Shown here one piece after another: positions 28,669 to 48,463 of a DNA stretch of 64,000 nucleotides. The stretch is from positions 96,001-160,000 of IMG/VR virus record IMGVR_UViG_3300009709_000001. One strand, 5' to 3'. Source of the DNA: a virus (Duplodnaviria > Heunggongvirae > Uroviricota > Caudoviricetes). Within the stretch, counting starts at the first letter, position 1. The number at the start of each line of letters is the position of its first letter. Position numbers and translations under genes: made by a program. Under the pieces are notes generated by a model that was not told the DNA's origin, searched no databases, and saw nothing but the letters and a program-made list of their open reading frames with translations.

Positions 28669-29469
28669 TTACCAGCTGCAAGAATTGCGTTTTTGTTGAA
28701 CTACACTTCTTGTTTTTGATGGCCAAGTTTTGTCCGAATATCTAGCATTCGGTGGCATCGGGAATTGAATCTGGGTATGTTGTTGAACTTGACCTAATTC
28801 AACAATAAATTGATCAAGGCTTCCCTTAGCTGGTCGATGTTTAAATTCATACACCAAAACATCTCTTGTAATCACATCAATCAAAATCTTATAGAAACCC
28901 GATGGAATAATTACTCGATTTGGGCCAATTGTCGGATCATCATATCTGTAAATCAGACCTGCATAAACAAGGATAGGATGATTTCTGGCATTAGCTAATG
29001 CTCTGGTCTGATCTTCAAGTCTCTTCCAAATTCCACGATTAAAACCGGGAAGCTGTGGAGTCATGTTGCTCAGGATGAAGCTTTCAGTCTCAATAACTGT
29101 ATCCCAGGACATATCAGCATTATTGGCAATATGGCCAGTATCGTACCCCGAATCGTTATAGTCCCGAAGTGTTGATCTTGCATCGGGGCGCAAGCTCAAA
29201 TCAGGTGAAAAAGCGTTGGATCGTTTGACGCAGCCCGTAGTGTGCTCAGGCGTCAACATATAAGAGACCCAGACGGGAATTTTAGCTTTATTGTCGTATT
29301 CCAGTGCATAAGCCTTGCGGCAAATCTGCACGCTGTCATCTTTGCGCACTTGCGGAATACCATAAGGCATCTGCTGTTCACATTGCTGTATCGGCATTGG
29401 TGGATCCTGCGGTACAGCAAAGGCCGATATCGTTGTTACTAAGGCAAGAAGTGCGAAGATCTTTTTCAT
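28669..29469 (-). CDS. secreted DNA/RNA non-specific endonuclease (NucA/EndoG family)
   Basis: signal peptide; YDTGH catalytic motif, ESFILSNMTPQ...FNRGIW..LE. Confidence 0.92.
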   Translation of the reverse strand: MKKIFALLALVTTISAFAVPQDPPMPIQQCEQQMPYGIPQVRKDDSVQICRKAYALEYDNKAKIPVWVSYMLTPEHTTGCVKRSNAFSPDLSLRPDARSTLRDYNDSGYDTGHIANNADMSWDTVIETESFILSNMTPQLPGFNRGIWKRLEDQTRALANARNHPILVYAGLIYRYDDPTIGPNRVIIPSGFYKILIDVITRDVLVYEFKHRPAKGSLDQFIVELGQVQQHTQIQFPMPPNARYSDKTWPSKTRSVVQQKRNSCSW

Positions 29470-29517
29470 GTGGTCCTTAATGAAAAAGCCCCAATGATAA
29501 TATCACCGGGGCAAAAC

Positions 29518-29591
29518 TGGAGCGGGTAACGAGAATCGAACTCGTGCATAAACTTTGGCAAAGTTTTAGGCTACCATTACATCATACCCGC
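29518..29591 (-). tRNA. tRNA-Gly(GCC)
   Basis: AAACT-TT-GCC-AA-AGTTT; U73-CCA. Confidence 0.92.
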
Positions 29592-29601
29592 ATACATCTA
29601 T

Positions 29602-29862
29602 TTATCTTCTAACTAAAAAATTCCGAAAGTGTGTTTTCACACCAAAGCTTCTAGGACATGGGCTTGCATTGGCATGTCAAGTATACGATTTCTCTTCATG
29701 ACTTGGTTCGGGCTTTCAAAGCCAAAACAAACAATTACCCATTCAATCCGCAAGAATTTACCGTTCAGATCGTAGCATCCTGGACTTATCTCGCTTCGCA
29801 CTCTTTAAATAATGGCTACTTCTAGGCCTACATCCTTACAGAGTTTTTTAGTTAGAAGATAA
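29602..29862 (-). ncRNA. ncRNA mimicking the 23S rRNA L11-binding domain (H43/H44)
   Basis: GGATGTAGGCCTAGAAGTAGCCATTATTTAAAGAGTGCG (29835-29797) matches the conserved 23S H43 segment; enclosed by a ~22-bp terminal helix. Confidence 0.7.
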
Positions 29863-29884
29863 GGGGACTCCGGTCCCCTTATCT
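29857..29884 (-). terminator. hairpin after the DUF2828 gene
   Basis: AGATAAGGGGAC-loop-GTCCCCTTATCT; weak T-tract, so may be a processing stem rather than a terminator. Confidence 0.5.
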
Positions 29885-29896
29885 ATACACGACCTC

Positions 29897-31306
29897 TTAG
29901 AAGTCGTACTTCTCGACCATTACAGTCTTCAGCATAATGCTGATCGGTGTCATTTCTTCACCACCAAGAACCGACTTAACGATGCTTGGGCTGAATCCAG
30001 ACACAAGTGCTGCACCGACCTTGTTATAGGTCACCGGGCTGTTACCAGAACGGCCAGTAATGTTCCAGAACACGATCTGTGGCATCTTGTAGCCTGCGGC
30101 TGCATATTCTGCCTCGATCATTTCCATCGCACTAACCGACACACCTGCACCATAACCACGGCCGGAACCAGCGGTTACGCAAGTGTCGAATTCCATGTCC
30201 GACAAGATCATGATCTTTGTCGGCATTTCCTTCTGTGCAACCTTACCCTTCACTGCCGCACCCAAGATCAACTTGAATACAGCCTGGATGTCAGTATTCA
30301 TGCTCCAGCTCGAACGAGACATAGTATCGAAACGCTGCTTCAAAGTACCAGTTACCTTCAACAGTTCTGGCGCACCAGAGAATGTCACGAACTGATCCTT
30401 GAACACACCACCCATGCGTTCTGCGGTGTATAGACCTAGCGAAATCGCCACGTCCATTGCAGTTACCGATCCAGACACCGGAGTATCCATAGAACCGGAA
30501 ACGTCAACAACCGCAAGGATGTTTTCATCCGAACCTTCCAAGTAGTTAGGCAATGCCTTCCACTGTTCGTTCGACACAGTAACGTCACCGTTACGTAGAG
30601 AACGGATCACATCGTATGGGTACGCCACCGATGCGTTGATCTTTGCTTCGCCAGAAACCAGCTTAGCCTTATAGGTAGCATAACCCGATGGGTCGTGCTT
30701 ACCGAAAGCCTTCTGATAACGACCAGCAGCAACCGAAGGAACGTGCTGGTAGTTGATGTCATCCCATTCCTGGGCACACATCTTCTGTTCAACAGTGTTA
30801 GACAAGCTAACAACGAGTTGACGATACTGCTTAGGTGTCAACTTCAAGTAAGAACGAATCTTACCGGCTTCTGCACCCTGACGAGGCATCCACTTAGCGC
30901 ACAGACCGTCCTTGGCATTCAAAGCAGTCGCAATCATGCGCAATGCTTCGCGTTCCAATGGAGTACCGAATGCAACGAATACGTCGTCCCAACGACCAAG
31001 TGTCGGCACCTTCGCCAATACCTTCGAAGCGTTAACCGCGTCGGTACGGATCAAGTAACCAAACAGGTCACGGAAAGTCTTACGTTCGCCGGAACCACCA
31101 CGGGCGTCACGAGTCCATTGAAGGATACGGATCGCCACTTCAGAATCTTCTGCCAAAGCACCAGCAAAGACATTCTTGATGTCCTTACCGCGGCTTGCGC
31201 CAGCTAGGAAGAAGAGGTCCACGTTCTTATTCAACGAGGACACGTTGGTAACCGCGCCATTAGCGGTTGTTGCGGAGGCGTTTATAGCGGTGAAAAGGTC
31301 TGTCAT
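29897..31306 (-). CDS. DUF2828-family TROVE-like + vWA protein (Ro60-related)
   Basis: T.NG.....S....VDLFF, RD.RGG.GER..F, GRWDD, AKW.PR, E..MC...W..I.Y..VPS.A, MIDAS DVSGSM, FS..P, TD.Q.VF..IL, SDMEFD, P.IVFWN, VSGFS. Confidence 0.85.
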   Translation of the reverse strand: MTDLFTAINASATTANGAVTNVSSLNKNVDLFFLAGASRGKDIKNVFAGALAEDSEVAIRILQWTRDARGGSGERKTFRDLFGYLIRTDAVNASKVLAKVPTLGRWDDVFVAFGTPLEREALRMIATALNAKDGLCAKWMPRQGAEAGKIRSYLKLTPKQYRQLVVSLSNTVEQKMCAQEWDDINYQHVPSVAAGRYQKAFGKHDPSGYATYKAKLVSGEAKINASVAYPYDVIRSLRNGDVTVSNEQWKALPNYLEGSDENILAVVDVSGSMDTPVSGSVTAMDVAISLGLYTAERMGGVFKDQFVTFSGAPELLKVTGTLKQRFDTMSRSSWSMNTDIQAVFKLILGAAVKGKVAQKEMPTKIMILSDMEFDTCVTAGSGRGYGAGVSVSAMEMIEAEYAAAGYKMPQIVFWNITGRSGNSPVTYNKVGAALVSGFSPSIVKSVLGGEEMTPISIMLKTVMVEKYDF

Positions 31307-31355: not shown

Positions 31356-31387
31356 TTAAAATTTAATTTTACATAAATAGTTTTACT

Positions 31388-32212
31388 ATGTCAACCAACT
31401 TAACACAGAAACCACCTAAATGTAAGAATCCCGAGTGCCAAAATGAAACATATTGGCGTAAAGGGTCCAAATCAATGCAATGGTCTACTTATTGCATGAA
31501 ATCATGCTATCATTCTCATAAGAGCACTCTTATGTCTAAACCACCAAGGTTAAATGGTCCAAAATGTAAATTACCTTCTTGTGAAAATCTTGTAAATTGG
31601 TCAAGAAGTAAAGGGGTCGGGTGGAAAAGCTATTGCTCCGGTAATTGCTCATCAAAATACAAATCGGCTATTCTACTAGATGAAAAATTATCTCTTCCTA
31701 TAAAAATATGTAATAATCCATACTGTAATAATATCGTTTCGATAAGAAACAAATATTCACATGTATGGCTAGATCAATGCTCTCTTGAATGTAAAAGAAT
31801 AGTCGATCAAATTAAAATCAAATCTACAAACATACAGAGGTATGGCGTAGAAAATGTTATGCAATGCGATTCTATATTTGCAAGTAATATCAAAAGCAAT
31901 AAACGATTCAAAGATTATATTTTACCATCTGGTAAAATAGTTCGCATACAGGGAAATGAAAACCTTGCATTGGACCAACTTCTTCAGACTTATCAAGAAG
32001 CAGAAATCATTTGCGATAGATCTCTTGTTCCGAAATTTTGGTACGGTAAAAAGAAATATTATCCAGATATCTATATACCGAAAGATAATCTTATTATCGA
32101 GGTCAAATCTAAATGGACTTATAATGGTAAACCGGAATGGTTAGAATCAAACCTTCTTAAACAGCAGGCATGTTTAGATGCCGGATATAACTTTAAATTT
32201 ATGATTTACTGA
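31388..32212 (+). CDS. putative homing endonuclease (paralogue of 249-1163)
   Basis: three Cys-rich repeats; KDYILPSGK, YYPDIYIPKDNLIIEVKSKWT, ACLDAGYNFKFMI shared with 249-1163. Confidence 0.78.
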   Translation: MSTNLTQKPPKCKNPECQNETYWRKGSKSMQWSTYCMKSCYHSHKSTLMSKPPRLNGPKCKLPSCENLVNWSRSKGVGWKSYCSGNCSSKYKSAILLDEKLSLPIKICNNPYCNNIVSIRNKYSHVWLDQCSLECKRIVDQIKIKSTNIQRYGVENVMQCDSIFASNIKSNKRFKDYILPSGKIVRIQGNENLALDQLLQTYQEAEIICDRSLVPKFWYGKKKYYPDIYIPKDNLIIEVKSKWTYNGKPEWLESNLLKQQACLDAGYNFKFMIY

Positions 32213-48386: not shown

Positions 48387-48463
48387 TGGTGCGCCTTGTG
48401 GGATTCGAACCCACGGTCACGGATTTAGAGTCCGCTGCTTTAGGCCGGCTAAGCTAAAAGCGC
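48387..48463 (-). tRNA. amber suppressor tRNA (anticodon CTA)
   Basis: GCGGA-CT-CTA-AA-TCCGT; intact cloverleaf; 4-nt V-loop; A73-CCA. Confidence 0.9.

Follow-up and report, generated by a model that had tools for sequence, protein, structure and literature searches.

The GTPase-associated centre (GAC) of bacterial 23S rRNA (E. coli 1051–1108) is the minimal fragment that binds uL11 and thiostrepton. The 58-nt GAC fragment, taken by itself, has a high affinity for L11, and longer fragments spanning H42–H44 bind L10–L12. A1067 and A1095 are in contact with thiostrepton and EF-G, uL11 reads the folded scaffold, and oligonucleotide copies of the GAC and of the sarcin–ricin loop (SRL) bind EF-G in vitro. 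Ribosomal protein (r-protein) operon leaders, such as the rplJL leader bound by L10–L12 and the rplKA leader bound by L1, are off-ribosome RNAs that imitate the rRNA site of an r-protein. Similarly, Y RNAs and YrlA, which act with Ro60 (Rsr), are small RNAs of modular build whose terminal stem is long; they mimic a cellular RNA (tRNA in the case of YrlA) and are encoded beside a Ro60-type gene, also in phages. ROOL and GOLLD are structured phage RNAs of unknown function located beside tRNA genes, and to our knowledge neither is known to copy an rRNA domain. We know of no description of a free-standing gene that copies a functional centre of rRNA.

The 64,000-nt stretch of phage DNA analysed here (the window) contains, on the minus strand at positions 29602–29862, a 261-nt RNA in which a closing helix encloses a copy of the top of H42, H43 and H44. 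The helices, the G1056·A1103 mismatch, U1060/A1088, the U1082–A1086 pair, the G1093·A1098 loop closure and the 1072/(1092–1099) triple are common to the 23S GAC and the phage RNA. However, the phage RNA is a separate small gene and not a part of the 2.9-kb rRNA, it has a closing helix of its own, and a structured insert of 79–370 nt across the family (157 nt in the window, measured from GAGU to G1091) leaves H44 between 1090 and 1091; in addition, the exposed positions 1067 and 1095–1097 are free to vary in the phage RNAs, and the loop in the window reads GUGAAA. Unlike r-protein leaders, which are cis parts of r-protein mRNAs and usually reproduce a local motif, the phage RNA copies a whole domain including its tertiary structure; the Rfam leader models gave no match, and the RNA is followed by tRNA-Gly and a nuclease gene, with no r-protein gene after it. 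The likeness to Y RNA and YrlA lies in the modular build, the long stem and the Ro60-type neighbour, but the pairing with such a gene (DUF2828) holds only in the clade of the window; the corresponding models (RF00019, RF02553) gave no match at the gathering score or at E up to 10, and no tRNA-like module was called inside the window RNA. With ROOL and GOLLD there is no sequence or model similarity (Rfam 15, the window and ten relatives).

The boundaries of the window RNA are the first and last bases of its closing helix, and the whole RNA is represented in both the family alignment and the alignment of its own clade (type D). The 5′ arm of the closing helix, which is H42-like and extended (UUAUCUUCUAACUAAAAAACUC, 29841–29862), pairs with the 3′ arm (GAAUUUUUUAGUUAGAAGAUAA, 29602–29623) at 21 of 22 positions, with one C·A mismatch, and seven further positions continue into the GAC. 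These form the analogue of the H42 top, whose 5′ strand (E. coli ~1050–1056; 29834–29840) pairs with 29624–29630 and retains G1055–C1104 and the G1056·A1103 mismatch. The H43 mimic (1057–1081; AUGUAGGCCUAGAAGUAGCCAUUAU, 29809–29833) was identified by sequence and by a match to the large-subunit rRNA (LSU) model, and it is followed by UUAAAGAGU (1082–1090; 29800–29808), which contains the U1082–A1086 pair, then G1087 and A1088, and the 5′ strand at the base of H44. The insert occupies 29647–29799 and was delimited by the type-D consensus, the covariation of P1 and a constrained fold, the consensus and the fold also serving to place its helices: P1 (29798–29799 with 29647–29648), which consists of two Watson–Crick pairs and one G·A; P2 (29791–29794 with 29750–29753), preceded by GA; and P4 (29746–29749 with 29654–29657). 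A plain hairpin at 29711–29723 is followed by CGAACCAAG, and CCUAGAAG stands just before the 3′ strand of P1. A UUUG linker (29643–29646), conserved in nearly all members, leads from P1 to the H44 top, and the H44 mimic (1091–1105; GUGUGAAAACACACU, 29628–29642) has the U1092–A1099 pair and the loop GUGAAA, with G at 1095; the segment at 29643–29628 of the minus strand reads GGUGUGAAAACACACU. The tertiary triple is in the U/(U–A) form, in which U1072 matches U1092 paired with A1099.

Over the 40 nt from the H42 top to GAGU, 31 positions are identical to a real bacterial 23S rRNA (L054). The Rfam LSU model (RF02541) matches the RNA at model positions 1097–1144 with 12.7 bits (E 0.13, 601 nt searched) and, in a search of the phage's own genome, with 17.8 bits (E 4.2e-4). 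Both scores lie below the gathering cut-off of 50, far under it, as is to be expected of a piece of 45 nt, and the window RNA is not part of a full-length 23S rRNA. The predicted fold of the whole RNA has a free energy of −74 kcal/mol (z = −3.8), and none of 200 shuffled sequences folded as well. An earlier, sequence-only reading had placed at this position and on this strand a free-standing, self-closed mimic of the L11-binding GAC, clamped by a helix of about 22 bp. Coordinates, strand and clamp proved correct on re-reading the sequence, and the mimic itself is supported. The roughly 150 nt that it had called unrelated are not so, as they hold the family-wide P1, P2 and P4 and the YUAGAR–UUUGG motif; its H44-like hairpin is best taken for the true top of H44 (1091–1100) with a diverged loop. 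The E. coli numbering is assumed from the 1051–1108 fragment, since the record fetched as E. coli 23S (L054) is a non-E. coli 23S; A1067 and A1095 fall in the right loops under this numbering. That record (NZ_AP027888.1), listed as a 2750-bp E. coli plasmid, is a circularised 23S rRNA with a GAC (GGCUCAGAAGCAGCCACC...GAGUGCG) unlike that of E. coli, and is probably an assembly artefact from another organism.

About 80 phage contigs in IMG/VR share this architecture, as do cultured phages. By blastn of the region against cultured phages, the H43 module was located in unannotated intergenic gaps of Cronobacter phage GAP32, Pectobacterium phage CBB, Yersinia phages fHe-Yen9-03/04 and Ralstonia phage RSP15. 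Two short queries added Acinetobacter phage ME3, Xanthomonas phages XacN1, XaC1 and XbC2, Aeromonas phage 4_4572, Pseudomonas phages pf16, UNO-G1W1, Milchi and Astolliot, Vibrio phage 2.275.O, Serratia phage BF and several Erwinia jumbo phages. In IMG/VR, a pattern built on the 3′ end only matched 47 stretches and one built on the 5′ end only matched 89; among the 80 of the latter listed, about 35 were new true members, and the remaining listed matches fell in coding sequence by chance. The loci newly added by the 5′ scan are all outside real rRNA, with no more than 40 nt aligning to 23S by blastn. In cellular genomes (one genome per species, 185,579 species), the 3′ pattern matched only three short MAG contigs, so that the RNA is a phage trait. 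Rfam 15, searched with the window and ten relatives at the gathering score and at E up to 10, returned only tRNAs and the weak LSU piece, and full-text literature searches found no published account of such an RNA family. Judged by sequence comparison, the phage GAC mimics are thus a large phage-only family for which neither an Rfam 15 model nor a published description was found. ncRNA004 of phage PA5oct, considered as an expressed member from an RNA-seq paper (PMC7318152), does not belong to the family.

The common layout of the family is the closing helix, the H43 copy, UUUAAAGAGU, the structured insert, YUAGAR, UUUGG, the H44 loop, CACAC and the closing helix again. In the window RNA, the terminal helix lies directly beneath 1054–1056/1103–1105, the H43 copy is followed by UUUAAAGAGU, the insert starts with P1 and GA/AA and ends with YUAGAR, the P1 3′ strand and UUUG, and the H44 top G-Y-G-U-N-N-N-A-R-C precedes ACAC, with 1072 matching 1092. 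Relatives keep the H43/H44 fold with a variable insert, as the family searches and the alignment showed and as the sequence-only reading had suggested checking. In L046 and L048 (IMG/VR), the 3′ strand of H43 is interrupted, after AGCCA and before the UUUAAAGAGU/UAUAAUGAGU segment, by an extra hairpin of 35–60 nt, and this is a second tolerated expansion site of the GAC copy.

The insert is a conserved, separately structured part of the RNA and not filler. It opens with P1, GA or AA and a 4-bp P2 that covaries across subfamilies, and the P4 helix then returns to CC-YUAGAR ahead of the 3′ strand of P1; the junction looks like a k-turn-type three-way junction. It was found that the sarcin–ricin 12-mer AGUACGAGAGGA occurs, with at most two mismatches, in 18 of 53 members, where shuffling predicts 0.8. 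All 18 have inserts of 313–358 nt in which the 12-mer sits in a covarying hairpin, and the family therefore often mimics both RNA halves of the GTPase-binding site. For instance, the long forms L006:6881–7307, L090:5602–6014, L100:3102–3489, L065:3685–4067 and L067 carry the 12-mer hairpin on covarying closing stems, with RUAAG as the 5′ flank and UUAA as the 3′ flank, and GGGA or AAGC replaces the GAGA tetraloop in some variants. Apart from the GAC and the SRL 12-mer of long forms, no rRNA-like segment was found in the inserts by blastn-short against 23S. In the window RNA the best match to the 12-mer has four mismatches, so no SRL copy was found; the hairpin at 29711–29723 takes the place of the SRL module, and the window RNA is thus a GAC-only version.

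In all, 53 distinct cores were collected and 55 full sequences were aligned. In these 55 sequences, which are related to one another, the 24 pairs of the GAC secondary structure and P1 are formed in 94.0% of cells, compared with 72.4% in column shuffles (0 of 500 as high), and the covariation score is 0.558 against 0.158 in the shuffles; sliding the partner by 1–3 columns as a control left 34–55% paired. Changes on both sides were observed in 18 of the 24 pairs. The first family helix (closing/H42 top) is 87.9% paired with double changes in all nine of its pairs. Pair 1058–1080 occurs as U–A, G–C, A–U and C–G, pair 1082–1086 as U–A, A–U and C–G in relatives, and each of the three P1 pairs as three to five different pair types. 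The pair 1054–1105 is formed in 53 of 53 cores (AU 28, GC 24, UA 1) and 1056/1103 is G·A or A·A in all of them, many invariant core positions being partly forced by the search patterns that collected the family. The tertiary triple is kept across the gap of 79–370 nt: 1072 equals 1092 in 53 of 53 (C/C–G in 18, U/U–A in 27, U/U–G in 8), and both states of the triple occur within five separate insert subfamilies, so the switch took place repeatedly. Meanwhile, position 1067 is A in 32 cores and G in 21, and 1068–1070 and 1095–1097 are variable. As far as sequences can tell, then, the GAC fold is under selection, with compensating changes across dozens of unrelated large phages, and the pattern of a fold that is kept and contact bases that are free speaks more for the binding of r-proteins or a scaffold role than for an exact target decoy.

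The closest relatives of the window RNA are found in a 364,576-bp IMG/VR contig (L093, the same record as L121) and in the metagenome contigs L120 and L122. The four-way consensus of this type-D clade has double changes in 21 of 42 pairs, and the insert of the window RNA is the most divergent type. Upstream of the RNA on the same strand lies a gene for a Ro60-shaped protein with DUF2828 and DUF7788 (29897–31306), and just after its stop codon there is a GC-rich hairpin (29859–29882) whose 3′ arm shares 4 nt with the start of the closing helix; a terminator-like hairpin occupies this place in the relatives. The order gene–hairpin–RNA on one strand is kept in the four related loci (the window, L093/L121, L120 and L122) at 74–83% protein identity. 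A tRNA-Gly(GCC) gene (29518–29591, minus strand) begins 10 nt after the RNA and is also present in L122, and an intrinsic-terminator-like hairpin with a U-run (29488–29512, minus strand) ends the unit. The only strong promoter match upstream, a sigma70-like TTGACA-17-TAAAAT (11 of 12; 31366–31394, minus strand), stands before the DUF2828 gene, and no promoter-like site was found between that gene and the RNA. With the sole strong promoter before the gene and a terminator after the tRNA, the RNA probably arises by read-through, tRNA processing would release it, and RNase P cleavage at the 5′ end of tRNA-Gly would set its 3′ end. In the type-D relatives the closing helix has 10–13 bp and a different compensating sequence in each, so that the 22-bp extension in the window is local and not a sequence-specific docking site. 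A DNA/RNA non-specific endonuclease gene (Endonuclease_NS) with an N-terminal signal-like segment lies after tRNA-Gly (window 28669–29469, minus strand), and the same gene also follows the RNA in L122 and L093.

The proximity to a Ro60-like gene that the sequence-only reading had pointed out is real for the clade, with its conserved order in four loci, but beyond the clade it recurs at only one other locus, L084, where the RNA is followed ~0.7 kb downstream by a 36%-identical DUF2828 gene. In RSP15 a DUF2828 gene is ~7 kb away, and the distance is 183 kb in GAP32 and more than 180 kb in pEa_SNUABM_19. DUF2828 occurs in 711 phage records; among the matches listed, most are phages of ~70–250 kb (Felix O1-like, mycobacterial, Listeria and Campylobacter phages), and these did not turn up among the GAC-mimic carriers found by blastn and the short queries. 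A family-wide partnership with DUF2828 is rejected, since most members have no such gene nearby and in GAP32 the two are so far apart.

The window belongs to a complete phage genome of 385,394 bp with terminal repeats. Within the window, 23 tRNA genes were called, and these and a permuted tmRNA are all on the strand of the RNA; one of the tRNAs in the cluster, at 48387–48463 (minus strand), has a CUA anticodon, is labelled Pyl by ARAGORN and is amber-reading. Across the family, a same-strand tRNA lies within 300 nt in 30 of 53 members, and 23 have none. Clustering of the ORFs within 5 kb of the 53 members yielded no obligate protein partner, the best cluster being common to 3 of 28 RNA subfamilies. 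No uL11 or uL10 gene was found in the phage genome. A 122-aa protein encoded outside the window (G000:C1:286017–286385; L126:1518–1886, minus strand) matches the bL12 C-terminal domain over residues 14–42 (Pfam PF00542, 35.4 bits, cut-off 25.9), a region that corresponds to the factor-binding helix, and no N-terminal uL10-binding domain is recognisable in it. This gene is also present in the genome of L093 and is absent from nine other GAC-mimic carriers (10 tested). A phage-encoded r-protein partner is rejected on the absence of uL11 and uL10 and the restriction of the bL12-CTD-like protein to the clade of the window. With regard to two further genes mentioned in the sequence-only reading, MazG was found in the genome, and the supposed (p)ppGpp-hydrolase-like gene was not confirmed, as no SpoT-type HD_4 domain was found in the genome.

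Regarding function, we favour, with about an even chance of being right, an off-ribosome imitation of the stalk base that would bind host uL11 and possibly uL10–bL12. The RNA would be a transcribed, structured non-coding RNA reproducing the three-dimensional fold of the 23S GAC (H42 top, H43 and H44), expressed in line with tRNA genes, in the window behind the DUF2828 gene and ahead of tRNA-Gly. Since a terminal helix closes the domain, it should be able to fold without the rest of the ribosome. As the conserved part is the protein-binding scaffold, binding of host uL11 appears most likely, and the long H42-like stem may add uL10–bL12 binding. Such a particle, free of the ribosome, would be an imitation of the stalk base, and it may either draw exchangeable uL11 and stalk proteins off ribosomes, with a relaxed state blind to RelA as the outcome, or keep occupied whatever usually docks there. 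The relaxed exposed bases, the lack of a phage protein that travels with the RNA family-wide and the absence of the phage's own uL11 and uL10 are in agreement with uL11 binding. The window copy's G at 1095, its altered H44 loop and its most divergent type of insert tell against it, as does the SRL copy of the long forms, which suggests that the whole factor-binding site is imitated and not only the r-protein site; a uL11 sponge may also be of no consequence within one infection cycle. A broader proposal, which we hold to be doubtful, is a ribosome in pieces: the RNA would recruit host uL11 and uL10–bL12 into a free-standing stalk-base particle, with the SRL in long forms, that would keep translational GTPases, RelA or stalk-dependent defence nucleases from ribosomes by capturing them, and big phages would thereby control the host's translation alarm systems. 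In the clade of the window, expression from the operon of the Ro60-shaped protein would provide a link to RNA quality control.

The main rival, if unlikely, is that the RNA is a decoy for a recogniser of the factor-binding site, with a translational GTPase, RelA, a stalk-captured defence nuclease and a toxin that modifies or cleaves rRNA as candidates, and that the RNA alone or loaded with host stalk proteins soaks up this ligand and so protects or reprogrammes translation. The excess of SRL copies, through which both halves of the GTPase-binding site are imitated, argues for such a decoy, as do MazG and the protein with the bL12 factor-binding helix in the genome; however, the window RNA has no SRL copy, the bL12-like gene is missing in most other carriers, and the bases in contact with factors and thiostrepton, which a target decoy should keep, are the least conserved (A or G at 1067, and G at 1095 here). 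An improbable alternative is that the RNA is a clade-specific, Y-RNA-like partner or client of the DUF2828 protein, whose stem docks on the protein and whose GAC payload tethers it to uL11 or ribosomes. The order kept in four loci, the DUF2828 genes near the RNA in L084 and RSP15, the unusually long stem of the window RNA and the lack of a separate promoter match between gene and RNA are consistent with this, but most members have no DUF2828 gene nearby, most of the DUF2828 phages listed are not among the carriers found, the four related loci do not share a stem sequence, the stem having only 10–13 bp in the relatives, and the CAGCAA handle of this phage's candidate DUF2828 partner RNAs is absent from the window RNA.

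A purely cis-acting role as a processing or regulatory element of the DUF2828–tRNA transcript with no function in trans (for instance in stabilisation, RNase entry or the control of read-through) would be in keeping with the position between a terminator-like hairpin and a tRNA, with the overlap of the hairpin's 3′ arm and the closing helix and with the frequent abutment of family members on tRNAs, but it is rated as very improbable: a processing signal needs no exact GAC tertiary fold with a covarying triple, the neighbours differ wholly between subfamilies, and 23 of the 53 members have no tRNA within 300 nt. Even the partial identity to real 23S in the 5′ half and the weak LSU model match leave next to no probability for a functionless, decaying fragment of captured host 23S rDNA with an insertion, which is effectively excluded because of the covariation and distribution data. 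The RNA has no rRNA flanks and no member aligns to 23S by blastn over more than 40 nt, its own closing helix is absent from rRNA, compensating changes run throughout, and the same insert position and junction recur in about 80 phages of very different hosts; moreover, enterobacterial phages have U/(U–A) and GAGU where their hosts have C/(C–G) and GAAA.

If the RNA binds uL11 or the stalk, as the stalk-base reading holds, it would be a new viral means of acting against translation factors, the stringent response or ribosome-directed defences, and it would provide a natural minimal model of the GAC. The family is at the same time a natural mutagenesis of the GAC, in which the bases needed by the fold can be told from those needed only by the ribosome. 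It is widespread in large, tRNA-rich phages of many hosts, and cultured, manipulable carriers include GAP32, CBB, fHe-Yen9-04, RSP15, ME3, XacN1 and pf16. In XacN1 the RNA (L123:2979–3339; AP018399.1 150245–150605) directly follows a gene annotated as a 2′-5′ RNA ligase, which is another neighbour of the RNA-repair type, like the Ro60-like gene in the window.
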